This document shows, piece after piece, positions 26,498-42,999 of a stretch of DNA of 64,000 bases. Position 1 is the first letter of the stretch. The number at the start of each line of letters is the position of its first letter. Location of the stretch: contig OZ242311.1 in assembly GCA_965207885.1 (NCBI GenBank), positions 1,856,001 through 1,920,000 of the forward strand. Reading direction: 5' to 3'. Below the pieces are notes generated by a model, which searched no databases, was not told where the DNA came from, and saw only the letters and a program-made list of their open reading frames with translations. The translations under genes and the position numbers were made by a program. This DNA comes from Candidatus Latescibacterota bacterium (GTDB lineage: Bacteria; Latescibacterota; UBA2968).

Positions 26498-26809
26498 ATG
26501 GGAAGAAAAAGATCATATCCATCAGCATTTCGCCAGCAAATGGTCGCGCTGGTCAGATCAGGCCGTAGTGCCAGCGATTTGGCCAAAGAGTTTGAGCCGA
26601 CCGCTCAGACGATCAGTGCCTGGGTGCGTCAAGCAGACCGCGATGAAGGCCGTCGGGACGATGGGTTGACCAGTCGTGAGCGAGAAGAACTTCAGCGGCT
26701 TCGCAAAGAAAATAAACGCTTGCGTCAAGAGCGTGAGATCCTTGCAAAAGCCGCGGCCTGGTTCGCAGCGGAGACCGATGCGATACCCCCAAAATCTTCA
26801 GATACATAA
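26498..26809 (+). CDS. IS3 transposase OrfA
   Basis: Homologous to 24146-24460; AAGGAG RBS. Confidence 0.92.
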   Translation: MGRKRSYPSAFRQQMVALVRSGRSASDLAKEFEPTAQTISAWVRQADRDEGRRDDGLTSREREELQRLRKENKRLRQEREILAKAAAWFAAETDAIPPKSSDT

Positions 26810-26838
26810 AGGCGCATCAGGCCATCCATCCGATCACC

Positions 26839-27690
26839 ATGCTATGCCGCGTGCTGGGTGTCTCCACCAGTGGGTATTATGCCTGGTGTAATAGACCTTT
26901 ATCTAAACGGGCAAAGGACGATGAAAAGTTAACAGAACAAATAAGCACCTTTCATCAGCGTTCTAATGGAACCTATGGCGCACCGCGTATCTTTCAGGAT
27001 CTGCGCGAAGTAGGTGTCCACATCAGCAAGAAACGGGTCGCAAGACTGATGCGACAAGCCAATATATGTGGTGTGAGCCGAAGAAAAGGTATCCTGACTA
27101 CATACCGGTCTATCACAGACGAGAAAGCCCCTGATCTGGTTAAGCGAGACTTTAGGGTTGATAAGCCCAACAAGCTGTGGGTCGCTGATATTACCTACAT
27201 AAAAACCTGGTCTGGCTTTTTGTATCTCTCTGTTGTTCTCGACGCCTTCTCCAGACGCGTAGTTGGTTGGGCAATGGCCTCGCATCTGAAGACCCAACTG
27301 GTCTTAGATGCCTTGGATATGGCACTTTGGAACCGACGACCAGATGGGGTCATCCATCATTCAGATCAAGGCGCTCAATATACCTCTTATGCCTTTGGTC
27401 AACGCTGTGCAAGAATGGGGGTCAAACCCTCTGTCGGATCGGTTGGCGATTGCTTTGACAATGCCTTGTGTGAAAGCTTCTTTGCTACCCTTGAATGCGA
27501 GTTGATAGACCGGCATAGCTTCCCCAATCATAATCAGGCCAAACTGTCTATCTTCGAGTATATTGAAGGGTGGTATAACCCACACCGCAGACACTCTGCG
27601 ATCAGGTACCAATCGCCCATCACCTATGAAAAACTGATGGCAAAAGGTGACGGGGTTGAAAGTTCTACACTATCCACTAAAACGGGGTAA
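26839..27690 (+). CDS. IS3 transposase OrfB (DDE)
   Basis: LCRVLGVSTSGYY, WVADITY, HHSDQG, DNALCESFF. Confidence 0.92.
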   Translation: MLCRVLGVSTSGYYAWCNRPLSKRAKDDEKLTEQISTFHQRSNGTYGAPRIFQDLREVGVHISKKRVARLMRQANICGVSRRKGILTTYRSITDEKAPDLVKRDFRVDKPNKLWVADITYIKTWSGFLYLSVVLDAFSRRVVGWAMASHLKTQLVLDALDMALWNRRPDGVIHHSDQGAQYTSYAFGQRCARMGVKPSVGSVGDCFDNALCESFFATLECELIDRHSFPNHNQAKLSIFEYIEGWYNPHRRHSAIRYQSPITYEKLMAKGDGVESSTLSTKTG

Positions 27691-28105: not shown

Positions 28106-29596
28106 TTAGTTGATCACAATTATTTGATCACGCCACTTAGAATTCTCATAGTTTTCCAGACATTCGGTAATCAATGCTGCTTCTGGATAATTGATGAGTA
28201 TTTCGAGAGTCTTTTCTATATCCTGTGAAAAAAAAGGTCGTTTAGCTTCGGAGTTTTTTAGCTTTATATGCAAAAAATTTATCAGTTCGTCTTTCTTCTC
28301 ATGTTTTGAAAGAATGCGCATTATCTTATCAAGCCGTTCAATTTTGAGACGAAACTTGTAATCATCATCCAAAAAGCATTCCAATAACGCACCTCTCAAC
28401 ATGTCGTCAGGCCAAGCATCAGGTTCTGCAATCCACCAGTCAAGAAACCTAATAGCGTAGTTTGAGTCTCCATTAGCTGCCTGCAAAATATTACGACCAA
28501 GTATTTCGGCTTGATCAGCCTCCAAGTTTCCTAAGTTATTCTCTCCATTTTGCATTATTAGTTGCATCGCTGGATTTTGGGTGTACCAATCACGAGATTT
28601 CAAATCTTCTATAATCTTGTCAAAGCATGTCGATATTTGCAAACCCGACGCCATCAATGTTTCGATTCTAGTTTTCCCAATAGCCTCTTGAAATCTGTCT
28701 TTCTGTCTATCGTTAAGTGCATCCGCATCGTACAGACACTCCAAATCACTTAGGCCAGATGGTATATTTGAGCTACCTATTAGGCGTGCGACGATACTAT
28801 CTTGTGCTCTCTGCCCAATTTCTTTGAATAACTCCGGGCGATTTGCAAGTATCAAGCACAAAATTTGCGGATGTTTTATAACGAGATTATGCCACTGCTC
28901 TACATTGAAAATTCCACAACCTACGAGTTCTAAAAATCTGCGAAGAAACCAAGTGGCCCTATTCGTAAGTAATTCGAGACTCACGTCGGTGGCGACAGGC
29001 TCAATTTCCTTCATGTACTTTTCTACAAAATAACCATAAACATCTTTATCGAGCTTTGGTGTAATGCTTTCTACGTATCTGCTGACAGTAGGTTCGTGAT
29101 TGTCGAGATAGGAGCTTTTCATTAGATTCTCAATCAACGAAGATACATAGCCCTCTTTTAAAGTGGTAGGTTTAGATAGCACATTCTCGACTACTGTGCA
29201 GGCAGCATGTCCGACTTCTTCCTCAGAGGGAGCTTCTTCATAAGGATGCCCGAAGATACAACGCATTTCGTATATATGTTCTAATTTTTGGTGCGCAATA
29301 TCAGATACAAAACCATAGTCTCGAGCTTTAACGAGAATGAATTTATCGATACTCTGGTGTTTTTTTTCTTGTTCTTCGAATTCACTAACAATTTTTGCGG
29401 CAATGTGATCTCTGAGGGCAGCTTCTCGAAATTTACGTTTAAGAGATTCCAAACACGAAAGCCATAATAGAATGTAGGCCCCTCTGAGTGCTCCAACTCG
29501 TGCAGATTCAACAGCCTCATCAAAGAGTGGTTTGTCATTATCCGCAAGTACTCTGTTTTGATATTCAGATAAATCTGTCCTGTTCTCGTTATTCAT
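28106..29596 (-). CDS. Hypothetical protein with N-terminal HEPN (DUF4145-like) motif
   Basis: 'FDEAV...GALRGAYILLW...LESL' helix and Rx4H motif RCIFGH; helical C-terminus; GGAGAGGAG RBS. Confidence 0.65.
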   Translation of the reverse strand: MNNENRTDLSEYQNRVLADNDKPLFDEAVESARVGALRGAYILLWLSCLESLKRKFREAALRDHIAAKIVSEFEEQEKKHQSIDKFILVKARDYGFVSDIAHQKLEHIYEMRCIFGHPYEEAPSEEEVGHAACTVVENVLSKPTTLKEGYVSSLIENLMKSSYLDNHEPTVSRYVESITPKLDKDVYGYFVEKYMKEIEPVATDVSLELLTNRATWFLRRFLELVGCGIFNVEQWHNLVIKHPQILCLILANRPELFKEIGQRAQDSIVARLIGSSNIPSGLSDLECLYDADALNDRQKDRFQEAIGKTRIETLMASGLQISTCFDKIIEDLKSRDWYTQNPAMQLIMQNGENNLGNLEADQAEILGRNILQAANGDSNYAIRFLDWWIAEPDAWPDDMLRGALLECFLDDDYKFRLKIERLDKIMRILSKHEKKDELINFLHIKLKNSEAKRPFFSQDIEKTLEILINYPEAALITECLENYENSKWRDQIIVIN

Positions 29597-29769: not shown

Positions 29770-30126
29770 CTAAAGCGGAATAATCCCAAACGCTTTTTTC
29801 CGAAATGTAGTTGGAGTATCGCCATACTTCTCTTTGAAAATCTTGCTAAATGTCGATAAAGATGTAAACCCACACATATAAGCAATTTCTGTAATAGAAT
29901 ATGGTGTGTTCTTCATCGCTTCTCTGGCCTTTGCCAGGCGTACATTCTGAAGGCACGTCCCGAATGGTGCGCCCAGGTGTTTTTTGAACAATGCGTAACC
30001 ATGCGATTTAGAAAATCGAAAATAGCGCATGACGTCTTCAAATTTTAGATCTGGATTGCTGTAATGATTCTCCAAAAACGATTCCAATGCGATCTTACAT
30101 ATATCTTGCATCTGCTTGTCCATCAA
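29770..30126 (-). CDS. Stand-alone AraC/XylS DNA-binding domain protein
   Basis: 'RLAKAREAM...SITEIAYMCGFTSLSTFSKIFKEKYGDTPTTFR' AraC signature; no effector domain. Confidence 0.85.
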   Translation of the reverse strand: MMDKQMQDICKIALESFLENHYSNPDLKFEDVMRYFRFSKSHGYALFKKHLGAPFGTCLQNVRLAKAREAMKNTPYSITEIAYMCGFTSLSTFSKIFKEKYGDTPTTFRKKAFGIIPL

Positions 30127-30191
30127 TTCTCTCGCAGAAATGGTTTTAGATCAAAGAGAAAGTCTTGATTCAAATAGTCTAAATGTTATCC

Positions 30192-31100
30192 TTAATGTGA
30201 AAACTGAGCGTCTCGAAAAAACGTATTGACGATTGTCATATAACAGGCATTCTGTTTTCTTTTTTTCTTTTCTGGTGAGAGTGCGGAATTCCGATCCCTG
30301 AACTCTTGGATGCGCTCAGGCGTAACCCCATAGATATTCCGAATGGTATTGAACAGACCAATCAGATCTGTCTCACAGCAACTATTCGCTTTAGCCAGCG
30401 CGCTCAAATACACATCATCAACATGGGATAATGCCTTTGTAATACGGGAGCGCGTTTCGCTGACAGACTGAACATCCGAAAGTCTGGCAGGCGCATTCCA
30501 ACACGGTGTCACGGATCTGACCTTACGCAGCACTGCCAGATGGTGGTCCTCGCGGATAACCTCCACTGCAAAATTACCGGGATAGACGGATAGCCAGTTC
30601 TCGACAATTTGCTTCTCAAATCGCCTTCTGAAATCGTCCAGAATGACCAGACCACCAATCTTAATCTGATCATAAACCTGATAAAGGCATGCCTCTCGAC
30701 CTCGCAAGGTATAGACCGGCGGACCATCAATAATCACGCAATCTATCTCTTCCTCCCAAAATATCCCATCTTCATAAGTCAAAAATTCCGCATTTCCATA
30801 AGATTCAAGAGTAATCGGACGATATCTGATCGACAGATTGCGCTTATCCCAGAATGTTTGCATCAAACTCGTGGTCTCTGCAAAATTCCGCCAATCGCCT
30901 TCCATAGACAGAACCTCGGCTTCCGAAAACGCCATCGCCAGACGGATAGAACTCGGACCACTTCCAAACTCGAGAATTCTTTCTACTGGGGACATCTGAA
31001 GAAGCGTGGTTGTAATTCTCTTAAACGCCGTCTCACCAATGCTCCAGCCCGCGTCCAGATTAAGCCGATCCGGTATTTTGAGGTCTGAAATTTTATGCAT
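30192..31100 (-). CDS. Class I SAM-dependent methyltransferase
   Basis: ILEFGSGPS, VLSMEG, VIIDGP, GGLVILDD. Confidence 0.82.
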   Translation of the reverse strand: MHKISDLKIPDRLNLDAGWSIGETAFKRITTTLLQMSPVERILEFGSGPSSIRLAMAFSEAEVLSMEGDWRNFAETTSLMQTFWDKRNLSIRYRPITLESYGNAEFLTYEDGIFWEEEIDCVIIDGPPVYTLRGREACLYQVYDQIKIGGLVILDDFRRRFEKQIVENWLSVYPGNFAVEVIREDHHLAVLRKVRSVTPCWNAPARLSDVQSVSETRSRITKALSHVDDVYLSALAKANSCCETDLIGLFNTIRNIYGVTPERIQEFRDRNSALSPEKKKRKQNACYMTIVNTFFRDAQFSH

Positions 31101-31248
31101 TTCTCACTTATCTCGGATTACTTTGGCATGCGCGTGGCGGCTTTAAGCATACAGGCATGACAAGGTGTCACGCCTATATGCCTGAAGCAGGCGTCCCGGG
31201 TCGGAGGGAATATCAGGAGGCCTGTTCTGATCCTGCTCCGCCAGTGGT

Positions 31249-32679
31249 TTATGAAGCCACTTCCAGATCATATCGCCGCTGCAACAAAGACGCATCGACT
31301 TCTGCAATCTCCATACACATCTCCATCGCCAGTTCATAGCGATAGCGCGTCTGTTCGCAAGCAACAGGGTTGGGATACATCGGGTCACCCGTTGTCGTTC
31401 GCGCCTCCCAAAGACATCCGCCACCACACAAGTTGCGCGCCCAGCACGTCTTGCACTCAGGACGATTATTCACATTGAACTGCGCGTCAAAATACTGCTG
31501 CTTTTCGCGATCAATACCCGCAAACACATCACCCATCTTAAACTCGGGCGCATCGGCCAAACTCGAACAAAAATAAATCGACCCATCTGCTGCAATCGCC
31601 AAATACTGCTTGCCACCGAGACATCCATGACAGGATTTTTGGCGCGTCAACAGTTTTTGAATCCGCGGATCAAACTCCTCATGCTCTTCACCGCTTAAAA
31701 TAGCTTTGAGCGCACGCCTACTCCGCCTGTAAATTTGTTCCTTCAACGCGGGTATGTGTTCTTCCCCAATCGCATAGGGCGCATCCGGTGAAACAACAGC
31801 CGGACCAACAAGCGCGTTATCGGTACCCAGAGAACGCAACGCATCGGCAATCTGATCCTCGTCCATATCATAAGCTGTCATAACAGCCTGCAAATACACC
31901 CTCTCGGGAACCTCAGCAGTCAGTTTCTGTACATTCTGTGCCACAACATCATAAGTGCCAGAACCATTGTGAAACTTGCGAATGCGATCCTGTGTTTTAC
32001 GCCCGCCATCCAGACTGACCTTAATTTGAAACTTTTCATCAACCAAAAACTGCTTCATCTCGTCGGTCAACAGCGTGCCATTGGTCACAATGCCAAAACC
32101 AACCTGCACCCCCAGCCGCGCGCCCTGGGATTTGGCAAATGGGACAAGCTCCTGCATCAATGGAAAATTCAGAAGCGGCTCTCCGCCAAAAAAATCGATC
32201 TGGCACCGCTCAAACACCTGAGCCTCGGCGATGATCCAGCGTATCGCTTGCTCGGCAACGTCCGGTTGCATCAGCATTGCCTTACCGCCATAATCCCCGC
32301 CATGGGCAAAGCAATACGCGCATTGGATATTGCACGTATGGGAAACGTGCAAAGACACCTGCAAACGATCTATCTGCGAAACCCCACAGGCTGCCACCCC
32401 TTCTGTCGTCGGTACATCGGATACCACAGGTAGAGCACCATCCGAAATCAAACCCACCTGAGCCAATTCTTCGATAGCCTCGGTAATTTCCTCTGCCTCG
32501 TATTGATCAGCCAGAACCTGAACAACCCGATCAACAGACAAGCCCTCACAGCACGCTAAAATTGACTGGAACAGGGTATCCAATTCAAAAAACAGACCTG
32601 TCTCAACCTGATAGACAATCGGCTGTTTGCGCTCTTCAGTTTGAAAAAGATGCATGTCGCATTTTTTAATGCACAGCAT
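31249..32679 (-). CDS. Radical SAM/SPASM peptide maturase with N-terminal RRE (CteB/QhpD-like)
   Basis: CNIQCAYC, FFGGEPLL, TNGTLL, VSLDG; SPASM CX2C-X17-C and CX2CX5CX3CX18C; about 90-aa PqqD-like N-terminus; GAGGAG before ATG 32679 (alternative GTG 32706 overlaps the peptide stop). Confidence 0.9.
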   Translation of the reverse strand: MLCIKKCDMHLFQTEERKQPIVYQVETGLFFELDTLFQSILACCEGLSVDRVVQVLADQYEAEEITEAIEELAQVGLISDGALPVVSDVPTTEGVAACGVSQIDRLQVSLHVSHTCNIQCAYCFAHGGDYGGKAMLMQPDVAEQAIRWIIAEAQVFERCQIDFFGGEPLLNFPLMQELVPFAKSQGARLGVQVGFGIVTNGTLLTDEMKQFLVDEKFQIKVSLDGGRKTQDRIRKFHNGSGTYDVVAQNVQKLTAEVPERVYLQAVMTAYDMDEDQIADALRSLGTDNALVGPAVVSPDAPYAIGEEHIPALKEQIYRRSRRALKAILSGEEHEEFDPRIQKLLTRQKSCHGCLGGKQYLAIAADGSIYFCSSLADAPEFKMGDVFAGIDREKQQYFDAQFNVNNRPECKTCWARNLCGGGCLWEARTTTGDPMYPNPVACEQTRYRYELAMEMCMEIAEVDASLLQRRYDLEVAS

Positions 32680-32702
32680 AGACGCACTCCTCAGAACCGA
32701 AA

Positions 32703-32888
32703 TCACTTATCCCGATCATCAGCCTGATCAAAATCGTCCCAATCGTCATCGTCATTGGGAAAGGGGAGGGGAGGAACAGCTGTCCAAGATGGACATCCAA
32801 TTTCTAAACTCGTAGTTCGATATGTCCGAATATCCCCCTCTGTATCTATAGTTCCATTGACCAGGGTCAACTTGCGTCGCGTTGCCAT
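32703..32888 (-). CDS. Putative RiPP precursor peptide (61 aa)
   Basis: AAGGAGG RBS; first gene behind a sigma54 promoter; directly upstream of the rSAM gene; leader RKLTLVNG. Confidence 0.8.
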   Translation of the reverse strand: MATRRKLTLVNGTIDTEGDIRTYRTTSLEIGCPSWTAVPPLPFPNDDDDWDDFDQADDRDK

Positions 32889-32930
32889 GTTATCCTCCTT
32901 GTAAGAATCTAAATACCATCTGCCCTATAC

Positions 32931-32947
32931 TGCAAAATGTGTGCCAA
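32931..32947 (-). promoter_or_regulatory. sigma54 (-24/-12) promoter
   Basis: Minus strand TTGGCAC-ACATT-TTGCA matches TGGCAC-N5-TTGC(A/T) exactly, 42 nt upstream of the peptide ATG. Confidence 0.88.
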
Positions 32948-33052
32948 AAATCGTTCTAAAACAAAAAAGCACTTGAAAAATTCTCAAGTGCTTAAAAAAA
33001 CAAGGAAATAAAATTTAAGAATTACGTGTGTTGCAAATACGACATTCAGGCA

Positions 33053-33173
33053 TAAGTGTATATAACAGGATACACTTACAAACGTTTATTTAACTAAAAT
33101 ACTCATAACTATCTGATTTATATAAATATTTCTAACTGTAAATAATTAGATACACTGTATATATCAGGATACA
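33053..33173. promoter_or_regulatory. Three candidate enhancer (UAS) boxes TGTA-N10-TACA
   Basis: TGTATATAACAGGATACA (33057-33074), TGTAAATAATTAGATACA (33137-33154), TGTATATATCAGGATACA (33156-33173). Confidence 0.75.
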
Positions 33174-33184
33174 TATATTCAAGT

Positions 33185-36100
33185 CTATCTCAACCCCAGA
33201 CGATTAATCTTTTTATGCAGACCAACGCGCGTCATCCCCAATTCTCTGGCAGTATGCGTAATATTGTCCTCGCATTTCGCGAGCGCGTCTCGAATCAACC
33301 GTCTCTCATACTCCTGGACATGGTCTTGTAAACGCCCCTGGAATTCGACAGAGACATCTGGTACTGTATGCCCGATGGATTCTGAAAACAAATCGGGCGT
33401 AATATCACCCTCTTCTTCTGCCAATGCAACCGCACGCCGAATCTCATTCTCCAGCTCGCGCACATTGCCCGGCCAATTGTAATTTGTGAGTGCCCTGATA
33501 GCCCCCACTGTCAGCCCCCCAACCGACTTGTTGGCATCTTCTTTCGCCCGGGTGAGCAAATGTTTGGCCAATAACGGCACATCTTCAATATATTCCCGCA
33601 AAGGCGGCATATCGATCTGAATCACACGCAACCGGTAATACAAATCTTCGCGGAACGAGCCGTTTTCAACTTCTTTTTTTAAGTCTCGATTGGTCGCTGC
33701 AATAATGCGTACATCCACTGTGCGATCCACTGTTTCTCCAACACGCCGAATCTCCCCTTCCTGCAACACCCGCAACAAACTCCTTTGCAATTGCGGTGGG
33801 GCATCGGCGATTTCATCCAAAAAAACCGTCCCTCCATTGGCAGCCTCAAAAATCCCCTTATGATCTTCAGTCGCGCCAGTAAACGCCCCTTTTTTATGCC
33901 CAAACAACTCACTCTGCAACAACTCTGGTGAGAGTGTAGCACAATTTTGCGACAAAAACCGCTGGTCTTTGCGCGTACTATTGTAGTGTATGGCACGCGC
34001 AGCCAATTCTTTGCCCGTACCTGTTTCGCCTTGCACAAGCACGGAAACATCGCTCTTTGCAGCGCGTTCTATAAGTTGATAGATCGCCTGCATCGCATCG
34101 CTTTGTCCGAACATATCGCCAAGTTGATGCCGCCTTTCGACCTCTTGCTGCAAATATTGTGCTTTCTCTTCCAATTGTTCGTACATCCTCGCATTGACCA
34201 GCGCCATCCCCACCAGATTCGCAAATGCCTGCAAAAACGTCTGATCTGCTTCAGAAAATGCATTGCCAATGCCGCGATGATCCACATACAGAGCACCCAT
34301 CACACCCTCGTTCAGATGGAATACGGGCACAGACAATACAGATCGAATGTGGTAGTCTATCACGCTCTGGTAGCGATTGAGCCTTTCATCTATTTGGGCG
34401 TCCATACTCAAAACGGGTTCATTTGTTTCAATAACCCGACGAATAATACCCCGACTCAGTGCTTCTGCATCATCTGCTTCTACATTGTAGTAGCGCACGG
34501 CATCGACTGCAAAGCCTCGCGGAGTCTCATTTTTAATTGCAACAAGCACGCGCTCTGCTGAATAAACAGCCAACAAATTACCCAAAGTCCGGTCCAATAA
34601 TACTTTGACATCGCGTTCTGTGGTCAACTCCCGGCTCACATCGTAGAGCAAGCGCCAGCGATCAACAGATAAACTTTCAGAACTGGATGCGGCATTCTCG
34701 CCGCGAGAAGATTCACGCAATTGATTTAATAACACCCGTGTTTTCTCCAGAAAATAAGACATTTCCATTTCTTTAAACGCCTGTTTTGCCGCTTCGAGAT
34801 GTGCTTGCGCTTTTGGTACATCACCGCGCTGGAGATAAAACTCTCCAGCCATCAGCAATGCACGCGCCCAGTGATCGCCTTTGGACTCTCTTCGGCATTC
34901 AATCGCCTGCTCAAAAGCCTCTTCAGCCTCAGCTATCCGTCCTGCCTGAGCGAAAGCCGCACCAACACCGCAATACACCAGGGGCAATATGCCCGTGTAC
35001 ATACCCGATGTTTGCTGCGTACCTTCGCTGGCTCTTTCTGCCCATTCAAGTGCTTCTTCTGTATCTCCCATTCTCACAGCAGCCGTTGCTGCAATCGCAT
35101 AAGCGCGATAAATATAATCTTTGCGCGGTGTTTCCAAGAATCGCTCTGCTGAGGTCTCGACATATTCCAATGCCCCGGCAAAATCACCGCATTCCAGTGC
35201 CATTTCTCCCAGCCATAAAAAATTTACTGCCTCCCAGTACACAAACCCTCGCTTCTGCCACTCACCAATGACTTCATGGCAAACGGCTTCCGCACGATCA
35301 CGTTCACCCAGATAAAAATAAACTCTTTGAAGTAAATTGAGTACCCAAGTGCGCTGGTGCTCAAGTCCCTGTTGCTGAGATGTTTTTACAGTAGCTTCCA
35401 TACGTGCTTTGGCTGTCTTAAATTGAAATCCTATTAATGCAACCAAACCTTCTCGCCCCTGTATAAAAGCGTCCTTTTGTGGATCTTCCAGCACACGACG
35501 TTTCTCTATTTCCCGGCGCATATACGCAATCGCTTCCTCGTGCCGCCCAGACACATCGCACAAATAAGCCAAACTGCTTAATGCTTGAATTTCTCCGTCG
35601 AAATCACCGAGTTCCCGATAAAGCCGCAATGCCTCCAGCATATATTTTTCTGCTATTTCCCCATGTTGAAGTACGCTGTGAATACTACCTTCAGTCCACA
35701 AAATACGTGCCTTTAAATCATACCGATCATCGGGCAATAACGCCTTTGCCTCGTCTAAAAGTTTTAGTGCCCTATTGTGCTGACCACAATTGCGCAGCGC
35801 ATCTGCATAATCGCACAAAAATTCGACCGCATCTGCCTGTGATTTAAAAGCGTCATCCATCTGTTGCACAACTTCAAACCGTCTCAATGCCTGGCGATAA
35901 GCGTGTTTTGCCAATGCTTTTTTGCCCGATAGGCGCATATAATTCACAGCCTTATTTTGTTCTCCCGCCGCTACAAAATGATCTGCCAATGCTTCTGTCA
36001 ATTCTTCTGCATCTTCCGACTCTTCCAGAGCATTGCCAATTTCTCGATGTAACAGACGCCGCCGCACATCTTGCATGCGATCATAAATTGCCCGTCGATA

Positions 36101-37984
36101 CAAACCCTGTGAAAAACGATATCGCTCTTCATCGCCATAAGTAATTAACAGCCCTTCTGCAATCAGGTCTTCGAGCACATCCAACAACTCCAACTCATCA
36201 CCGAGCCAGATAGAAGCCAATAATTCCAAAGAAAAATCATTTAAAAAAACACACGCGTATTCCATTACCTGACGTTGCACCGCAGGAAGGGCAGTTATGC
36301 GCCTGTACAAAACCTCTGAAATATCATCGGACAACAAAGTTTCGGGAAATTCTCCCCACTGCCAATCGCCGTACACATTCTGCCAAACCACATCGGCATG
36401 CACCAGTGTCCTCACGGCCTCCACGACAAACAGGGGTTGCCCACCCGTTTCCCTGAACAGGGTTTGCAAGGCATCCGGCGGAATGGATCGCTCCCCCAAC
36501 ATCGACGCCGATAGATACCCCACCTCTTCTCGCGGTAGATCTTTCAACTGAATCCGGATCGCTTCAGAAAATTCATTGCTGTGTATAAAATTCTCAATTT
36601 CCTTTGGAATAGATTCCCTATTGGACCCTTGACAGGTCAGGCATAACAAAAATGGACACGGGTCTGGATCGCGCAACACATACTGCAAAAATTCCAGGGT
36701 CAATTCATCAAGCCATTGAATATCTTCCAAACACAACACAATGGGCTGTTTCTGCCGCAGGCGTTTTAATGACTGCAACCAGCGATCCATAACAGAAAAC
36801 TTGTCCGTCTCTAATGAATCGGGCACTCTCCCCACCAAATCCGTCGTCTTTACCCGCTGAAAAGCATCGATCAACGCACCGTATATTTGTCCACCCTCTT
36901 CCCGCCCTGCCCCTTTCAAACAAAGAAAATCGTGGATCAAAGCGTCACCCAATAATTCTTCAGCCAGTCTCGATTTGCCCACCCCTGCCTCACCCGAGAT
37001 CAAAACCACGCGCTGCTCGCCAGCTTGTACATCCCGCAACATCGCACGCAACGTCTTCATCTCGGATTCGCGCCCGACAAATTGCGGCCGCATCACTTTT
37101 CTATGCACATCGCGCTGCTCGTCATCCGGTAGCACAAACCCCGATGATGCCACACCATTTAACGCCTGCACCAGTTCTTCTGCCGACTGATAACGATCAA
37201 CAGGCTCCTTTGCCAGCAACTTCAGCACAATTTGTTGCGTCTGGGCCGGAACCTCGACATGGGCTTCAGCCATTGATGGCGGTGACTCTCGAATATGCTT
37301 CAAAATAACGGACACCGGGTTTTGTCCAGAAAAGGGCGGTGCGCCCGTGAGCATCTCATATAAAATCACGCCCAATGAATACAAATCTGACCGATGATCC
37401 ACCCATAACCCCTTACCCTGCTCTGGCGACATATACTCGGCGGTACCAATCGTCGCGCCCGTATGCGTAATGGAGGCACTATGCAGATGTCTAAATTTAG
37501 CCAACCCCAGATCCAGAATGGTAGTATCAATTCCCTCTTCAGTTTCCAAAACCATAATATTGGATGGCTTGAGATCGCGATGCACCGCACCCTGCGCGTG
37601 GACATAAGCCACCCCCTCGGCAATTTGTTGCATCAGAGCAAAAAAGGACGAAGCTCGGAATTGTCCCAACAATACGCGATCGGCTATTATTTTTTCCAAC
37701 GTCTTTCCGGGCAAATATTCCATCGTAAAATAGGGACGCTCCTCGGCAAAGCCCCAGGTGTATGTGCGCACCAGGCGCGGGTGCTCAAATCTGTTCAACA
37801 CCTGAAACTCTCTGTGAAAACGTCGATGCACAGACTTCTGATCCACCATCGTATTCAAAATTTTGAGCGCGCACTCCCGGTCTTGCTCCAGGTCTAACAC
37901 CCGATAAACTTCTCCCATGCCCCCGGTTCCCAGGTGCGCCTGGATTTGATACCTTTTGTCGAGAATGGTGTCGATTTTAAACAT
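33185..37984 (-). CDS. Ser/Thr kinase - AAA/STAND ATPase - TPR - GAF - sigma54 activator - Fis HTH fusion
   Basis: GTGGMGEVY, ALK, HRDLKPSN, DLG, YMSPEQ; GEAGVGKS and LCLED; TPR-like helices; GAF; GETGTGKE, GAFTGA, FLDEI, REDLYYRL, WPGNVREL; C-terminal HTH. Confidence 0.92.
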   Translation of the reverse strand: MFKIDTILDKRYQIQAHLGTGGMGEVYRVLDLEQDRECALKILNTMVDQKSVHRRFHREFQVLNRFEHPRLVRTYTWGFAEERPYFTMEYLPGKTLEKIIADRVLLGQFRASSFFALMQQIAEGVAYVHAQGAVHRDLKPSNIMVLETEEGIDTTILDLGLAKFRHLHSASITHTGATIGTAEYMSPEQGKGLWVDHRSDLYSLGVILYEMLTGAPPFSGQNPVSVILKHIRESPPSMAEAHVEVPAQTQQIVLKLLAKEPVDRYQSAEELVQALNGVASSGFVLPDDEQRDVHRKVMRPQFVGRESEMKTLRAMLRDVQAGEQRVVLISGEAGVGKSRLAEELLGDALIHDFLCLKGAGREEGGQIYGALIDAFQRVKTTDLVGRVPDSLETDKFSVMDRWLQSLKRLRQKQPIVLCLEDIQWLDELTLEFLQYVLRDPDPCPFLLCLTCQGSNRESIPKEIENFIHSNEFSEAIRIQLKDLPREEVGYLSASMLGERSIPPDALQTLFRETGGQPLFVVEAVRTLVHADVVWQNVYGDWQWGEFPETLLSDDISEVLYRRITALPAVQRQVMEYACVFLNDFSLELLASIWLGDELELLDVLEDLIAEGLLITYGDEERYRFSQGLYRRAIYDRMQDVRRRLLHREIGNALEESEDAEELTEALADHFVAAGEQNKAVNYMRLSGKKALAKHAYRQALRRFEVVQQMDDAFKSQADAVEFLCDYADALRNCGQHNRALKLLDEAKALLPDDRYDLKARILWTEGSIHSVLQHGEIAEKYMLEALRLYRELGDFDGEIQALSSLAYLCDVSGRHEEAIAYMRREIEKRRVLEDPQKDAFIQGREGLVALIGFQFKTAKARMEATVKTSQQQGLEHQRTWVLNLLQRVYFYLGERDRAEAVCHEVIGEWQKRGFVYWEAVNFLWLGEMALECGDFAGALEYVETSAERFLETPRKDYIYRAYAIAATAAVRMGDTEEALEWAERASEGTQQTSGMYTGILPLVYCGVGAAFAQAGRIAEAEEAFEQAIECRRESKGDHWARALLMAGEFYLQRGDVPKAQAHLEAAKQAFKEMEMSYFLEKTRVLLNQLRESSRGENAASSSESLSVDRWRLLYDVSRELTTERDVKVLLDRTLGNLLAVYSAERVLVAIKNETPRGFAVDAVRYYNVEADDAEALSRGIIRRVIETNEPVLSMDAQIDERLNRYQSVIDYHIRSVLSVPVFHLNEGVMGALYVDHRGIGNAFSEADQTFLQAFANLVGMALVNARMYEQLEEKAQYLQQEVERRHQLGDMFGQSDAMQAIYQLIERAAKSDVSVLVQGETGTGKELAARAIHYNSTRKDQRFLSQNCATLSPELLQSELFGHKKGAFTGATEDHKGIFEAANGGTVFLDEIADAPPQLQRSLLRVLQEGEIRRVGETVDRTVDVRIIAATNRDLKKEVENGSFREDLYYRLRVIQIDMPPLREYIEDVPLLAKHLLTRAKEDANKSVGGLTVGAIRALTNYNWPGNVRELENEIRRAVALAEEEGDITPDLFSESIGHTVPDVSVEFQGRLQDHVQEYERRLIRDALAKCEDNITHTARELGMTRVGLHKKINRLGLR

Positions 37985-38221
37985 GACCTCTTCTACTTTC
38001 TTCAGATCAACAGGTTCGACGATGTAACTACGGGGCAGTCATTCGCAACCCCGTTTCCAAAGTGATATTCGAATGGGCATAATATCAATTACTTAATTAA
38101 CAGTATATTATAATAAGAGCGATATATCGTCCTAATATACAATATATCGCCCTTATTAGAGAGAACAAGTCTATTTTTAATTAAAATAGCCGAACCGGTT
38201 ATCCAGCAATCATTATATTTT

Positions 38222-39226
38222 TCAATGCATCAAATTCATGATTTTTCCAACCTTTTTTGCGACACGGGGCGCAGTTAGCTCTGTTGTATTTTTCAGACCC
38301 ATCAAAAAACGGCGGGCAGAGTCATCAAACGACAGGCGATGCTGCGCAACATGTGTTTCCAGCATATCCAGATCGCGCAACACCTCGTCCTGTAGCGCAG
38401 GAAGGGGCATCATCCACAAACGCCTCAACAGCGTCTTCATAATCAAAATCGGGTCATGCGGATCTTGAGCCAAACGACTGTAAAAAGCCTCCAGGGGCAA
38501 TTCCCAATACAACTTCTGCACAATAAGCCCCAGATATTCCCGGTTCTTCCTGGCAATATCGCTCGCAGAAAAGCGATCAGACGCCGAACCTCTATCACCC
38601 TCATGCATGCGACATCGAAGCGTGGGTTGTTTGATAATCCCTATCTTAAACCCGGCGCGTATCATGCGAATCCACATATCGTAATCTTGCCCGCGAATCA
38701 AACGCTCGTCAAAACAGCCGACCCTGTCATAACACGACCGATGGGCAACCACAGTTGGACTACACAATTCAAACCGCCCGAACAAATACATCACCATATC
38801 GCCTATAGGCGGCATCCTCGCTTCAAAAGACCGCACGGGCACATCGCTTCTCTCTCCCTCTATAAATTCATAACCCGTATAGACAAACTTCAAATCCGGA
38901 TCTTCTGCAAACTGCGCCGCGTGCAACTCGAGCTTATTCGGCAACCCGATATCATCATCGTCCAAAATCCAAACATACTCCCCCGTCAAGTATTTCAGAC
39001 CCATATTCACAGCAGACGCCTTCCCACCATTTGCCTTTTCCATATAGCGAATCCGATCTCCAAACCGCCTGATCACCTCTGCCGTATCATCCGTAGAACC
39101 ATCGTTCACCACAATGAGTTCAAAACCCTGATACGTCTGTTTCAAAACGCTCTCAACAGCCTCCGCAACATAATTTGCGCGATTATATGTTGGGATAATC
39201 ACCGAAAATTTTGGATTTTGTGTCAA
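38222..39226 (-). CDS. Glycosyltransferase family 2
   Basis: SVIIPTYNR, VVNDGSTD, ILDDDD, QDYDMW; likely TTG start at 39226 behind GAGGTG. Confidence 0.9.
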   Translation of the reverse strand: MTQNPKFSVIIPTYNRANYVAEAVESVLKQTYQGFELIVVNDGSTDDTAEVIRRFGDRIRYMEKANGGKASAVNMGLKYLTGEYVWILDDDDIGLPNKLELHAAQFAEDPDLKFVYTGYEFIEGERSDVPVRSFEARMPPIGDMVMYLFGRFELCSPTVVAHRSCYDRVGCFDERLIRGQDYDMWIRMIRAGFKIGIIKQPTLRCRMHEGDRGSASDRFSASDIARKNREYLGLIVQKLYWELPLEAFYSRLAQDPHDPILIMKTLLRRLWMMPLPALQDEVLRDLDMLETHVAQHRLSFDDSARRFLMGLKNTTELTAPRVAKKVGKIMNLMH

Positions 39227-39314: not shown

Positions 39315-40274
39315 CTAACCGGCATCCATCACTTCCCTAACACCTGCAATAATATTATCTCGGTCAGGAAAAACGTGATCTTCTAATTGAGGCGTGTACG
39401 GGATGGGCACATGGAGAGCGCAGACGCGTTTGACAGACGCTTTCATCTTTGCAAAAGTCTCTGCATCTTCGGTCGCCACGGCGGCTATCTCGGCGGAGGC
39501 ACCCGCTGTGGGACCCGCCTCATCGGCAATGACCAGCCGCCCGGTCTTTTGCACAGACGCGCGAATAGCATCGCAATCGAGCGGAACCAATGTGCGTGGA
39601 TCCAGCACCTCGACGGAAACACCCTCTTTGTCCAGCACCTCCGCAGCCGCCAGCGCTTCGTGTACCAGCCAGGCCAGCGCGACAATCGTGACATCTGCAC
39701 CCTCGCGTTTAATATCCGCTTTGCCCAGAGGCAGGGCATAAGGCTCTTCGGGAACCTCGCCTGCAAAATCCATCAGGCGATTGGACTCAAAAGAAATAAC
39801 GGGATTATCATCCCGAATAACGGTCTTGAGAAGCCCCTTCATATCATAAGGCGTCGAAGGCAAAATCATCTTCAATCCCGCCAGATTCATAAACATCGAA
39901 TACGGACTCTGCGAGTGCTGCGCCGCAACCCTCCTGCCGCCACCGACCGACGTGCGGAAAGTAATCGGAAATTTCACCTGCCCCCCGAACATATAGTGAA
40001 TCTTGGCTGCCTGATTCACAATCTGGTCCATCGCCACAAAAGAAAACGTAACCATACTCCAGTTGATAATCGGACGGAAACCAGACCCCGCAGCGCCAAC
40101 AGCGATACCTGTAAGCGCACCTTCGGCAATGGGCGTAGCGCGCACGCGCTCAGACCCAAACTCTTTGACGAGCGCATCGGGCGCATCGGTTGACAGATGA
40201 AACGTCGTTGGATCGCGCCTCATTTCTTCTACAAGGGCTTCCATCCCGGCCTGTGCATAAGAGATTTTTCTCAT
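39315..40274 (-). CDS. 2-oxoacid/acetoin dehydrogenase E1 beta subunit
   Basis: TPIAE, AMDQIVNQAAK..YMFGGQ, AAQHSQ, DPRTLVPLD. Confidence 0.92.
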   Translation of the reverse strand: MRKISYAQAGMEALVEEMRRDPTTFHLSTDAPDALVKEFGSERVRATPIAEGALTGIAVGAAGSGFRPIINWSMVTFSFVAMDQIVNQAAKIHYMFGGQVKFPITFRTSVGGGRRVAAQHSQSPYSMFMNLAGLKMILPSTPYDMKGLLKTVIRDDNPVISFESNRLMDFAGEVPEEPYALPLGKADIKREGADVTIVALAWLVHEALAAAEVLDKEGVSVEVLDPRTLVPLDCDAIRASVQKTGRLVIADEAGPTAGASAEIAAVATEDAETFAKMKASVKRVCALHVPIPYTPQLEDHVFPDRDNIIAGVREVMDAG

Positions 40275-40289
40275 CGTATTATCCTCGAC

Positions 40290-41255
40290 TCACTCGGCAA
40301 AAACATCTTCGACAGCAGCTTCTAAATCTGGAAATGGACTCTCTTTGGAAAATTGGACCGCCTCCTCAATCTCCGCGAGAATTTCACCATCCATCTCTTG
40401 CCACGCCTCCTGGGTAATACAGTTCTGATCCATCAGACCCGCGACAAATCGCTCAATCGGATCTCTATTCTTCCATGCGCGGAGCTCGCTCTGCGGTCTT
40501 GGATCAGCTGCGCCAACCCTCTCCGTATGCCCCCGCCAGCGATAAGTCTTACACTCGATCAGCGAAGGACCCTCGCCCTTGCGCGCGCGGGCAACAGCCT
40601 CCTGAGCCGCGTCATAAACCGCCATCACATCATTCCCATCGACAACCACCCCCGGGATATCGTATCCCGCGGCACGCGCAGCAACATCGCTATGCGCCAG
40701 CGTACTCGCCGCCGGGGTGCTCGCCGCGTAAAGATTGTTCTCGCAAACATAGATCATAGGCAACTTCCACGCCGCAGCGATATTGATCGACTCGTGAAAC
40801 GGACCTGCATTTGACGCTCCATCGCCAAAAAACGAAACCGCAACGCGACCCTTGCCCTCGAGTTGCGCGGCCAGGCCAGCACCCGTAACAATCGGTATGC
40901 CACCTGCGACAATGCCATTAGCACCAAGCATCCCAATGCTAAAATCGGCAATATGCATCGACCCCCCTTTGCCCTTGCAATACCCCGTCTCCCGCCCATA
41001 AAGCTCAGCCATCATACGCTTCAAATCCGCGCCCTTGGCAATACAATGCCCGTGCCCCCGATGCGTACTGATAATCTGATCATCCGGATTGAGCGCGGCA
41101 CAGACACCCGTGGCAACGGCCTCCTCGCCGATATAGCAATGGACCACGCCGTAAATATCCCCCGCGCGATAATCATCAGACGCACGCTCTTCAAAGCGCC
41201 GGATCGTTTGCATAATCCGCAGCATCTCGAGTTGTTTCTCTTGTGTAAGAGCCAT
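40290..41255 (-). CDS. 2-oxoacid/acetoin dehydrogenase E1 alpha subunit
   Basis: STHRGHGH, GKGGSMH, FFGDGA..ENN, TYRWRGH; start MALTQ at 41255. Confidence 0.92.
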   Translation of the reverse strand: MALTQEKQLEMLRIMQTIRRFEERASDDYRAGDIYGVVHCYIGEEAVATGVCAALNPDDQIISTHRGHGHCIAKGADLKRMMAELYGRETGYCKGKGGSMHIADFSIGMLGANGIVAGGIPIVTGAGLAAQLEGKGRVAVSFFGDGASNAGPFHESINIAAAWKLPMIYVCENNLYAASTPAASTLAHSDVAARAAGYDIPGVVVDGNDVMAVYDAAQEAVARARKGEGPSLIECKTYRWRGHTERVGAADPRPQSELRAWKNRDPIERFVAGLMDQNCITQEAWQEMDGEILAEIEEAVQFSKESPFPDLEAAVEDVFAE

Positions 41256-41268
41256 AAGATAATCTCCA

Positions 41269-42999
41269 CTATGCTGGCCTATCACCCTTTTTAACCGGCG
41301 CTGTTCGGCTATCAACGCCCGGCAACATTTTTGACGGATCTCTCGTAACAATAACATCGATAATCGTAGGCATATCGCGATTGGCAATACCCTCGGCAAA
41401 AGCACCTTGCAATGCCCCGGGATCATCCACGCGAATACCCTGACAGCCAAGCGCACGGGCCGTATCGGCATAATCCGTCTCGCTCAAATCACTCGACTGA
41501 TAGCGCCCCGCATACATATTGTGCTGAAGCGCTTTGACATAACCCGAAGCCGCATTGTTCACAATCGCGAGCGTAAACCCAAGCTCAAGACGCCGGGCTG
41601 TCTCCAATTCACCGAGCACCATATTAAACCCCGCATCTCCCGTCAGACCAACAACGGGAGAATCACCCGCTGCGAGTTGCGCGCCCATTGTACCCGGCAA
41701 CCCATAACCGATAGAAGCAAATCCGCGGTTGGCAATATACGTGCGCCCAGACCGGGTCGAATCGTAAAGCAAACCAGTCCAATGCGCGGCAAAACCACCA
41801 TCCACAACCAGAATCCCGTCTTCGGGCATCGCGTTTTGCAACTCGCGCACCACCCGCGCCATATTGACGGGGCTCTCGTCAGAAGCATAACGCGGCTCCG
41901 CCTCGGCGCGCCAGACAGCCATCCGCTCTGAGACCTCGGCCAAATAGCCCACGCGCATCTCCTGTATCCCCACCCGGTCAGAGGACAAACACGCCTGAAG
42001 ATCGCGCAAACCCTCCGCCGCATCGCCCCAGAGTGAAACGGTAGCAGGCGTCGTGCGCCCGATTTCCTCAGCCACAATATCGAGATGAATAAAAGGCACA
42101 TCGCGCGGAATCAAATCATAGCGTTTCGTGGCAATCTCGCCCATCTTGCATCCAACAGACAGAATACAATCTGCAGACGCAATCAAATCATTGGCAATCC
42201 GCGACCAGCGCCCGAACAGCCCCACGCTGAGCGGATGAATACAGGGAATCGCACCCTTGCCACTCAGCGTTTGCGCAACTGGAATACTAAACGCCTCGGC
42301 AAAGCTCTGCAACTCGCAATACGCCCCGGAAAGATGGACACCGCCGCCAGCGAGAATAATCGGCCGCCGGGCATCGCGCAAACACGCCGCCGCGCGCGCA
42401 ACCGCATCTCGCCCCGGGCGTGAACGCTGTGCGGGAATACTCAGCGTTTCTGGATCCACAAAAAAATCCGCTCTGGGATAATCATACTCCCCATGGGCAA
42501 TATCCTCGGGAACATCCAGCACAACAGGTCCCGGCCGCCCGGACGTGGCAACAGCGTACGCGCGCCGCACAAGCTCGGGAATGCGATAGCCGCTCTCAAT
42601 CCGAATAAGCGCTTTAGCCGCTGGCGCCAGAATCTCCGTCTGACGCGCCTCCTGCGTCATATTCTTCCACGAATGCTCGCGATTGCTATTGCCCACAACA
42701 ACAATGAGCGGAACACCGGCATTCAGAGACTCCACCAGCCCCGTAACCAGATTCGTCGCCCCGGGACCCAGCGTACCATCGCATATACCGGGACGCCCAG
42801 TCACGCGCGCCCAGGCATCGGCGGCAAAAATACCACACCGCTCATCATTGATCAACGTATGCGAAAGCCCCAGTTCGCGCACCGCATCGTAAAAAGGTAG
42901 AAGCTGAAACCCCCCCATACCGAACATAGGCGCAGGATTGTGGAGGCGAAACATCTCGGCAAGAGCCTGCCCGCCATTCATGTGTACAACTGAAGACAT
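41269..42999 (-). CDS. Thiamine pyrophosphate-binding protein (acetolactate synthase-like)
   Basis: TLGPGATN, GRPGPVVLDVPED, GDAGF-X-VNN. Confidence 0.9.
   Translation of the reverse strand: MSSVVHMNGGQALAEMFRLHNPAPMFGMGGFQLLPFYDAVRELGLSHTLINDERCGIFAADAWARVTGRPGICDGTLGPGATNLVTGLVESLNAGVPLIVVVGNSNREHSWKNMTQEARQTEILAPAAKALIRIESGYRIPELVRRAYAVATSGRPGPVVLDVPEDIAHGEYDYPRADFFVDPETLSIPAQRSRPGRDAVARAAACLRDARRPIILAGGGVHLSGAYCELQSFAEAFSIPVAQTLSGKGAIPCIHPLSVGLFGRWSRIANDLIASADCILSVGCKMGEIATKRYDLIPRDVPFIHLDIVAEEIGRTTPATVSLWGDAAEGLRDLQACLSSDRVGIQEMRVGYLAEVSERMAVWRAEAEPRYASDESPVNMARVVRELQNAMPEDGILVVDGGFAAHWTGLLYDSTRSGRTYIANRGFASIGYGLPGTMGAQLAAGDSPVVGLTGDAGFNMVLGELETARRLELGFTLAIVNNAASGYVKALQHNMYAGRYQSSDLSETDYADTARALGCQGIRVDDPGALQGAFAEGIANRDMPTIIDVIVTRDPSKMLPGVDSRTAPVKKGDRPA

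Follow-up and report, generated by a model that had tools for sequence, protein, structure and literature searches.

The window analysed here is a 64-kb stretch of DNA (contig OZ242311.1, positions 1,856,001 to 1,920,000) from the genome of a sponge-associated bacterium of the Latescibacterota, which is assembled as one 6.23-Mb contig; near-identical DNA is held by sponge and marine metagenomes. Its subject is a cassette on the minus strand in which a giant sigma-54 activator gene is followed by the gene of a small peptide and by that of a radical S-adenosylmethionine (rSAM) enzyme. An earlier note on this DNA had described six co-oriented open reading frames (ORFs) with their domains, and had remarked that the unit holds no protease, transporter or immunity gene. 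All six ORFs were found at the places it gave, on the minus strand and, by Pfam and NCBIfam, with the domains it named, and none of the three kinds of gene said to be missing lies inside the unit in this window. The features, in order of coordinate, are as follows.

29770-30126, minus strand: AraC-type gene, 118 aa, with HTH_18 as its only domain in Pfam and NCBIfam; it is of MarA/SoxS size and has no sensor domain
30192-31100, minus strand: methyltransferase, 302 aa, class I SAM-dependent, with a C-terminal helical bundle at residues 204-299
31249-32679, minus strand: rSAM-SPASM maturase with a RiPP recognition element (RRE; RiPP, ribosomally synthesised and post-translationally modified peptide), 476 aa from the ATG at 32679, in an ORF that is open from a GTG at 32706 (485 aa)
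32703-32888, minus strand: precursor peptide, 61 aa
32931-32946, minus strand: sigma-54 promoter TGGCAC-N5-TTGCA, a consensus match
32967-32993, minus strand: terminator-like hairpin with a 12-pair stem and a T-run after it, 21 nt ahead of the -24 GG
33057-33074, minus strand: box 3, perfect palindrome TGTATCCTGTTATATACA, candidate activator site
33137-33154, minus strand: box 2, an imperfect copy TGTATCTAATTATTTACA that forms a tandem with box 1, read from the sequence
33156-33173, minus strand: box 1, perfect palindrome TGTATCCTGATATATACA, candidate upstream activator site
33185-37984, minus strand: giant enhancer-binding protein, 1599 aa
38222-39253, minus strand: family 2 glycosyltransferase (GT2), upstream of the activator and outside the sigma-54 operon

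A conserved core of three genes

The genome contains three paralogous sets of activator, peptide and rSAM genes, at 1.389, 1.888 (this window) and 5.336 Mb, the activators sharing 80-81% identity and the rSAM enzymes 91-93%. A profile of the peptide matches 16 of the 168 genomes of the phylum, all members of a single genus (this genome and 15 of 20 relatives) and with two or three copies in each, and the activator (E <= 1e-100) is present in exactly the same 16 of the 21 genus genomes as the peptide and the rSAM. The five genus genomes without these genes lack all three of them and are 97-99% complete. In the 10 complete genomes of the genus the activator, peptide and rSAM follow each other in the same order at 23 of 23 loci, and the refuting case named in the earlier note, that the neighbours are not conserved, does not hold for this trio. 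The comparison of gene content shows that the members of the trio share one fate in inheritance, duplication and loss; since the 21 genomes are close kin they count as a single case of shared gain and loss and not as 21 independent trials.

The arrangement extends beyond the genus, as six further genera of the phylum have homologues of the rSAM at 43-54% identity. At nine of the 11 such loci read a kinase-fused activator lies upstream (of the other two, one runs into a contig end and the second has no such gene), and these activators are ~40% identical over the full length where they are complete. One of the loci is decaying, its peptide being frameshifted, its activator interrupted and its promoter match gone. 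The central claim of the earlier note, that a signal-gated activator with a GAFTGA motif stands next to a sigma-54 promoter driving a peptide and an RRE-rSAM-SPASM enzyme, is thus supported by the constant trio, its identical distribution among genomes and its recurrence in other genera. To judge from these loci the conserved core of the cassette is three genes, and the methyltransferase, the glycosyltransferases and the sensor-less regulator are recurrent accessories. As an explanation, chance adjacency can be dismissed for the core trio but not entirely for the GT2 gene, which is kept mainly at one orthologous locus.

Promoter, boxes and hairpin

The promoter, TGGCACacattTTGCA, is the only place in the window where the sigma-54 consensus is matched without a mismatch, and rpoN is present in the genome. 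With one mismatch allowed the window holds 2 matches where 1.44 are expected, which is chance level, so it is the position and the conservation of the promoter that carry weight and not the count. A -24/-12 match is found at the same offset at all 23 genus loci and at seven of nine loci of other genera. Boxes 1 and 3 are perfect palindromes of the form TGTATCC-N6-ATACA and box 2 is an imperfect third, which agrees with the earlier description of a perfect promoter with three boxes; the looser pattern TGTAT-N8-ATACA occurs at 5 sites in the whole 6.2-Mb genome, 2 of them at this locus.

Between the boxes and the promoter sits the hairpin. A strict stem-search script recovers a hairpin with a T-run 7-26 nt before the -24 element at 24 of 30 promoter-bearing loci, including 21 of the 23 genus loci, and the loci that fail this script have, as judged by eye, a hairpin with a mismatch or bulge; a test based on minimum free energy proved too strict (8/30 loci) and was replaced by the script. 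The stem sequences vary between genera and the pairing is kept, as would be expected of a terminator that insulates the operon from the activator transcript, and the hairpin is presumed to be the terminator of the activator gene, protecting the promoter from read-through.

Each paralogue has its own palindromic upstream box, and the box covaries with the DNA-recognition helix of the activator beside it. Activators with the helix TRAGLQKK are paired with TGCATCC..ATGCA boxes at 10 of 10 loci, those with TRVGLHKK are paired with TGTATCC..ATACA at four of eight (the remaining four comprise one with TGTAAAC..TTTACA and three with no perfect palindrome of this type), and those with ARxSLYRK are paired with TGTATCA..ATACA at two of five. 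This covariation is the best evidence from sequence, and suggests that each activator works on the promoter that adjoins it.

A fourth copy of the regulatory region is found at genome position 5798400-5798875 (about 10400-10875 of locus L145), with three TGCATCC..ATGCA boxes, a hairpin and the promoter TGGCACgcattTTGCA, followed by a decayed peptide ORF that reads MTTET and then stops. It fronts genes for secreted proteins, namely two ORFs with no Pfam match and an 852-aa beta-helix protein whose C-terminus is a T9SS-like sorting domain. This copy has no activator gene next to it and may therefore be served in trans by the paralogue at ~1.388 Mb.

RNA contigs were available from one sponge metatranscriptome library (X23), in which word depth was 123-287 for the rSAM, 0-19 for the activator and 5-20 for the methyltransferase; none of the contigs covers 32812-33212, and one links rSAM and methyltransferase by way of a spacer variant of 22 letters. 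They were not used as evidence, as contig depth cannot rank genes, the library may contain DNA, and paralogues and strains are merged at 85% likeness.

The kinase-fused activator

The 1599-aa protein comprises a Ser/Thr kinase (residues 1-275), a STAND/AAA_16 region (~300-450), tetratricopeptide repeats (TPR, ~700-1090), a GAF domain (1124-1262), a sigma-54 AAA+ domain (1292-1457) and the helix-turn-helix (HTH) domain HTH_8 (1558-1595), and Pfam and NCBIfam between them recognise Pkinase, AAA_16, TPR, GAF, Sigma54_activat and HTH_8 (166.7 bits for Pkinase, 250.7 for Sigma54_activat and 34.8 for HTH_8). The N-terminus carries the motifs by which a Hanks-type Ser/Thr kinase is predicted, with GTGGMG as the glycine-rich loop, ALK with the beta-3 lysine, HRDLKPSN as the catalytic loop, DLG as a variant of DFG and SPE in the place of APE, and the Walker A motif of the STAND region (GEAGVGKS) is intact. 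The C-terminal part is predicted to be a sigma-54 enhancer-binding protein by its Walker A and B motifs (GETGTGKE, VFLDE), by GAFTGA at residue 1366 and by its C-terminal HTH, and the context fits that prediction: sites upstream precede a -24/-12 promoter, and the genome has rpoN.

Fusions of this kind are found elsewhere in the ESM Atlas, where nine of the ten neighbour clusters listed (57-116 members) consist of proteins of ~1500-2030 aa. Sigma54_activat is among the three families shown for seven of these, and Pkinase (or kinase in the name) occurs together with Sigma54_activat in at least four, of 57-108 members. A paper on this kinase-fused architecture was not found in the literature.

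Many activator copies in five relatives (G075, G080, G085, G086 and G089) are broken by stops, frameshifts or internal deletions and stand beside an intact peptide and rSAM; conversely, no peptide match lies next to one full-length activator (G072:4944521-4949302). From such copies the cassette seems to turn over quickly.

The precursor peptide

The 61-aa peptide matches no Pfam or NCBIfam model, and 108 relatives were found in the protein collection. In an alignment of 41 of them K6, L7, L9, N11, G12, P42, F43 and P44 are invariant, Cys32 is nearly so, and the tail is acidic. The leader, which takes in approximately residues 1-27, holds the first five of these invariant residues, and the core consists of Cys32, 5-6 variable residues, the stretch VPPLPFP and an acidic tail, DDDDWDDFD. 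Conservation spans the whole length of the peptide apart from the 5-6 residues after the Cys.

The profile of the genus peptide missed the diverged peptides of other genera, which were found by reading the intergenic DNA between activator and rSAM. There a small ORF has a leader of the same type (L/I-x-x-I/V-N-G/A) and one shared Cys that is followed by a Pro/aromatic stretch, for example VCxWPxFPxLPPP or SCDPSFPLF, with no acidic tail. The earlier note had asked whether homologues of the rSAM are accompanied by a conserved upstream peptide, and they are.

The radical SAM enzyme and its modelled contact with the peptide

Pfam and NCBIfam recognise Radical_SAM and SPASM domains in the enzyme and, weakly, a PqqD/RRE domain at residues 31-83. 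The start of translation is most likely the ATG at 32679, because the N-termini of homologues agree with it. The enzyme scores 264.7 bits with the model of the SCIFF maturase (TIGR03974, ScfB/CteB; cut-off 425), 262.2 with QhpD (TIGR03906; 453), 256.3 with the nif11-type maturase (518.7) and 229.7 with PapB (NF047865; 340), each of them below the cut-off. It had been asked whether the enzyme might instead be an anaerobic sulfatase maturase, and a score of 114.1 bits with TIGR03942, where the cut-off is 349, does not bear this out. The closest solved structure is that of CteB (5WGG; 207 bits, the alignment covering residues 30-461 of the 485-aa ORF), with which the CX3CX2C motif and the cysteines of the SPASM auxiliary clusters align. 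The near-equal scores with the SCIFF, QhpD, nif11 and PapB models, together with CteB as the closest structure, place the enzyme on a separate branch of the thioether-forming, or ranthipeptide, maturases. A profile scan of genome contigs with the rSAM alignment was dominated by SCIFF maturases, only 2 of the 80 loci kept being of this family, and a search of genomes was used in its place.

A model of the complex, in which rSAM and peptide were each given as an alignment, was run together with three controls; it scored 0.77, a mark attained by 58 of 80 solved complexes and by 2 of 110 mismatched pairs, and the best of the controls scored 0.01. At least 52% of contacts are common to the runs, and the predicted local distance difference test (pLDDT) value for the peptide is 46 or higher. 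Those contacts that are confident run from peptide residues 5-14 and 20-27, which include the invariant leader motif, to rSAM residues 37-46 and 77-84 in the RRE, and the peptide core is not placed with confidence. From this model we infer that the conserved leader sits on the RRE of the enzyme. By analogy with related maturases the enzyme would make one cross-link from Cys32, most likely a thioether.

Several of the distant loci have a second, more diverged rSAM of the same superclade. This second rSAM/SPASM gene comes after the first at loci L139-L144 and L002 of other genera; for some of the second copies the match to the models begins at about residue 120, and the radical-SAM motif may be absent from them. 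A glycosyltransferase gene of family 4 (GT4) usually follows the second rSAM, and L141 also has a heptosyltransferase-like ORF.

Accessory genes

The six genes had been presented in the earlier note as one unit, of which the core of activator, peptide and rSAM holds at every genus locus and the fixed set of six does not. A full methyltransferase gene follows the rSAM at 11 of 23 loci and two further loci have broken copies (11-13/23 according to whether these are counted), GT2 lies upstream at 8/23, and a close orthologue of the AraC gene is present at 3/23.

The methyltransferase could not be identified from Pfam alone, its match to Methyltransf_24 being 18.8 bits where the cut-off is 26.3, and profile alignment and a fold search were needed. 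It has 1461 relatives, with a Methyltransf_24 match in 45 of 66 aligned members, and its structure model (pLDDT 94.9) is nearest in fold to TrmR and to cation-dependent O-methyltransferases of the caffeoyl-CoA type (E ~1e-9 to 1e-7; TM score 0.42-0.46 on the query). No methyltransferase was seen at the loci of other genera that were read, so that the gene appears to travel with the acidic-tail peptides. A third, solitary copy (83% identical) lies at genome position 218122-219015 (L114), behind a perfect sigma-54 consensus at 217738; it follows a PAS histidine kinase and an NtrC-type response regulator, and a gene for an outer-membrane beta-barrel comes after it. At the paralogous locus at 5.33 Mb an IS4/IS5-type transposase comes directly after a frameshifted methyltransferase.

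Glycosyltransferases and sugar-nucleotide genes recur beside the cassette in several unrelated forms. Besides the GT2 upstream genes of the genus, a GT2 of 41-48% identity lies upstream at four loci of another genus, GT4 genes lie downstream in L127, L138-L142 and L002, and DUF354 with a UDP-sugar dehydrogenase is found in L134 and L128. Across the 6.2-Mb genome there are only 16 GT2 and 10 GT4 matches, so this recurrence is unlikely to be due to chance. The nearest solved relatives of the GT2 (chondroitin synthase, SpsA and PglI) build polysaccharides, and the enzyme may therefore serve a glycan rather than the peptide.

The third kind of accessory gene encodes a regulator at the end of the operon. 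AraC proteins of 196 aa occur at two loci of another genus, and at nine of the 23 genus loci the gene after the rSAM instead encodes a 340-aa PspF-like sigma-54 activator, AAA+ with an HTH and no sensor domain. The presence of two different sensor-less transcription factors at the same position suggests that the operon-end regulators form a second regulatory tier. That such regulators, like the glycosyltransferases, come back in other forms lends a measure of indirect backing to the ideas of AraC as downstream output and of sugar tailoring. Paralogues of the AraC gene (66-67% identical) are found at genome position 4178800-4185650 (L146), as a fusion of response regulator and AraC and as a stand-alone AraC of 137 aa; the same locus has a sigma-54 consensus at 4180815 before genes for an EF-hand/leucine-rich-repeat protein, a protein with a T9SS-type sorting domain and a dockerin-bearing metallopeptidase.

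Interpretation and alternatives

Taken together, the cassette is probably a self-contained, sigma-54-dependent unit of RiPP type, in which a dedicated activator switches on a peptide and its rSAM maturase. A signal would be sensed through the kinase, STAND-TPR and GAF modules, allowing the AAA+ ring to form at the boxes and bring about opening of the sigma-54 promoter; at other times the hairpin terminator would keep the operon silent. The leader of the peptide (K6-L7-x-L9-x-N11-G12) would then bind the RRE of the rSAM, and this SPASM enzyme, which resembles CteB, QhpD and PapB and has both auxiliary clusters, would form a single cross-link from the one conserved cysteine, Cys32; this would most probably be a thioether bond with a carbon atom of some residue of the Pro/aromatic/acidic core. 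At this locus the O-methyltransferase-like enzyme and possibly the glycosyltransferase may tailor the product further, and the sensor-less regulator at the end of the operon, AraC here and PspF-like at a paralogous locus, may relay the signal to other promoters. With three copies that have different boxes and matching recognition helices, the sets could act as separate channels. The core of this mechanism is well supported by the comparison of loci.

Several observations weigh against it. The rSAM falls under the curated cut-off of every named maturase family, and both the type of the cross-link and its acceptor are guessed on the strength of homology. Of the candidate acceptors (Asp, Glu, Thr or Asn), none is conserved across all the genera. 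A complex of CteB with its leader has already been solved, so that the pass of the complex model shows likeness to that binding mode and is not proof of binding, and it may reflect that likeness rather than anything particular to this pair. The covariation of helix and box is carried by only three or four lineages, within which kin share their labels, and four TRVGLHKK loci and three ARxSLYRK loci are without the expected perfect palindrome. Four of the 23 activators are broken and 19 intact, which indicates that some copies are decaying. Finally, no leader peptidase or exporter is conserved across the loci that were read; proteases and transporters are sporadic there, as M16 peptidases, CAAX proteases and, in L135, an ABC exporter.

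Among the readings that go further or elsewhere, the ones that survive best, albeit as unlikely, make the peptide a signal. The matured peptide, or its C-terminal part, would be a ligand of the TPR or GAF region of its own activator, either inside the cell or after export and re-uptake, giving three orthogonal positive-feedback channels per genome. The logic is comparable with that of RRNPP-type peptide sensing by TPR receptors, and ranthipeptides have been linked to quorum sensing in clostridia. The conservation of the peptide over nearly its whole length and not in the leader alone, the constant adjacency and joint multiplication of regulator, boxes and peptide, and the lack of a conserved exporter or protease would all suit such a circuit. 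However, a regulator may stand next to its target without any feedback, and in a sliding comparison no paralogue-specific sensor region was seen in the activator, the paralogues being about as alike as the orthologues everywhere except in the HTH, which speaks against paralogue-specific ligands; this last result counts against the preferred reading also, with the proviso that the grouping of activators into types may be blurred by recombination. In a wider and equally speculative form, which we also hold to be improbable, the cassette would be a signalling device and not an antibiotic pathway: a cross-linked peptide, methylated or glycosylated at some loci, would be read by the STAND-TPR/GAF part of its own activator in two or three orthogonal autoinducing channels, and the AraC- and PspF-like regulators would activate genes for surface and secreted proteins in the sponge symbiont. 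The boxes and promoter of one paralogue do already front genes for surface or secreted proteins elsewhere in the genome.

Somewhat less likely again is a small molecule or cofactor derived from the peptide, in which the glycosyltransferase and the O-methyltransferase-like enzyme decorate a peptide fragment. Mycofactocin, with its rSAM-SPASM enzyme MftC, its GT2 MftF and its methyltransferase MftM, provides the precedent, and the recurrence of glycosyltransferase or sugar-nucleotide genes in different forms beside the cassette would accord with it, as would the O-methyltransferase-like fold. The mycofactocin models are, however, far below cut-off (56.1 bits against 265 for the rSAM with MftC and 60.8 against 280 for the glycosyltransferase with MftF), the loci contain no conserved peptidase, flavoenzyme or other gene of a cofactor pathway, and the paralogous loci with the PspF-like activator (9/23) have no glycosyltransferase gene within +/-9 kb. 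The polysaccharide-building relatives of the GT2 point away from it as well, and the variable core after the Cys is unlike the invariant precursors of cofactors.

A role in anti-phage defence, with the rSAM-matured peptide as effector as in the HXS system and a STAND-type sensor in control, seems highly improbable. An rSAM-matured effector can act against phage, according to one paper (PMC13128918); the STAND NTPase and kinase of the activator are domains common in defence sensors and give generic PADLOC matches, the downstream ORF at 28106-29596 has a weak PADLOC match to PD-T7-3 (28 bits), and copies of the cassette are often broken with insertion sequence (IS) elements nearby. Against this, PADLOC 2.0 gave no system, only generic kinase, RtcR/PspF-AAA and viperin-core matches, the HxsB model scores 101.8 bits where the cut-off is 370, the output of the sensor is transcription through sigma-54 and not cell death, and the neighbouring genes are not defence islands. 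Least probable of all is that the peptide is, like QhpC, a cross-linked subunit or chaperoned partner of an enzyme and not a free product, for the level QhpD and SCIFF scores and an AraC gene that weakly recalls the QhpR of Qhp operons (38.6 bits, cut-off 250) are outweighed by a peptide with no NCBIfam match and one conserved Cys rather than several, and by the lack of dehydrogenase subunit genes at any of the 34 loci read.

Relationship to known systems

In the broad sense the cassette falls within the ranthipeptides, as an rSAM-SPASM enzyme of the SCIFF/QhpD/PapB clade lies next to a conserved precursor containing Cys, the thioether itself being predicted from this kinship. It is like the SCIFF system (CteA-CteB) of Clostridia in that both enzymes have an N-terminal RRE, a CX3CX2C core and a SPASM domain and in that a short precursor gene lies directly upstream of the maturase; SCIFF loci likewise are not known to have a conserved protease or exporter. 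It differs in that the rSAM is only ~30-34% identical to CteB and scores below the cut-off, in that the SCIFF precursor has six Cys in ~45 residues where there is one conserved Cys here and no likeness in sequence, in that the host belongs to the Latescibacterota and not the Bacillota, and in the dedicated kinase-fused sigma-54 activator and two or three copies per genome. The maturases of QhpD, PapB and nif11 type join Cys to Asp or Glu by thioethers, and the rSAM scores with them are nearly equal to the SCIFF score. The Asp-rich stretch after the Cys in the genus peptides would suit Cys-Asp links, whereas the peptides of other genera lack an acidic stretch, and unlike Qhp and nif11 systems the cassette has neither Qhp subunits nor a nif11 leader.

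The activator recalls the kinase/cyclase fusion of TOMM clusters (TIGR03903) as a giant Ser/Thr kinase-STAND-TPR protein beside RiPP genes; that model gives 290.1 bits, in three stretches over the N-terminal two thirds, against a cut-off of 705.75, and the output of the activator is a GAF-AAA+-HTH sigma-54 activator rather than a cyclase. With NifA and NorR (387.7 and 370.3 bits, both below their cut-offs) it shares the GAF domain, the AAA+ domain with GAFTGA, the Fis-type HTH, the -24/-12 promoter and the upstream palindromes, and it differs from them by ~1100 extra N-terminal residues of kinase, STAND and TPR. MarA and SoxS are sensor-less AraC domains and PspF is a sensor-less sigma-54 activator; the operon-end regulators here are output domains only in the same way (118-aa HTH_18; 340-aa AAA+ with HTH), so their activity would be set by the amount made, and they are below the cut-off of all curated models.

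The earlier note knew of no described RiPP class with this precursor or regulator, which stands in so far as no curated family takes the rSAM or the peptide. As a class the enzyme is known already, since antiSMASH labels 'ranthipeptide' clusters in metagenome-assembled genomes (MAGs) of sponge Latescibacterota, their function being stated there as unknown (PMC12993501). The richness of the Latescibacterota in biosynthetic clusters is also on record (PMC9426513), as are the control of metabolite genes by sigma-54 and, as noted above, the anti-phage effector. In Myxococcus, polyketide and non-ribosomal peptide genes are expressed from sigma-54 promoters with the help of enhancer-binding proteins (PMC7910581), the activators described there being response regulators, unlike the rSAM peptide cassette with its own fused sensor found here. 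What is new is the precursor family, the giant dedicated activator with its sigma-54 wiring, the paralogues with their specific boxes and the tie to sugar and methyl tailoring genes. Neither the peptide family nor the placing of a kinase-fused sigma-54 activator next to an rSAM peptide gene was found described in any paper, and the cluster tables in supplements of sponge-MAG papers could hold such loci unnamed.

As a relative of the SCIFF-type and ranthipeptide systems that has a dedicated sensor, a simple promoter and three matched pairs of activator and box, this cassette has an induction logic that is directly testable. The precursor family is so far restricted to sponge-associated Latescibacterota. 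The cassette documents a little-studied architecture, in which a Ser/Thr kinase and a STAND NTPase are fused to a sigma-54 activator, and it offers naturally orthogonal pairs of sigma-54 activator and enhancer; if the peptide were indeed a signal it would represent a new kind of signalling between cells or between symbiont and host.

Neighbouring genes

Upstream of the GT2, at 39315-42999 on the minus strand of the window, lie genes for thiamine-diphosphate enzymes (E1 beta-like with transketolase C, E1 alpha and acetolactate-synthase-like). By length, corresponding ORFs occur upstream of GT2 at the orthologous locus in relatives, and no link between these genes and the cassette was seen. Beyond the AraC gene are two large minus-strand ORFs, 28106-29596 and 24877-26412, of 496 and 511 aa, which have no significant Pfam or NCBIfam match and neither of which was found beside the cassette at the 22 other loci. 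An IS3-family transposase with HTH_21 and rve domains lies at 26498-27690 on the plus strand, ~2 kb beyond the AraC gene, and is made up of a 283-aa ORF at 26839-27690 and a 103-aa ORF just upstream of it.

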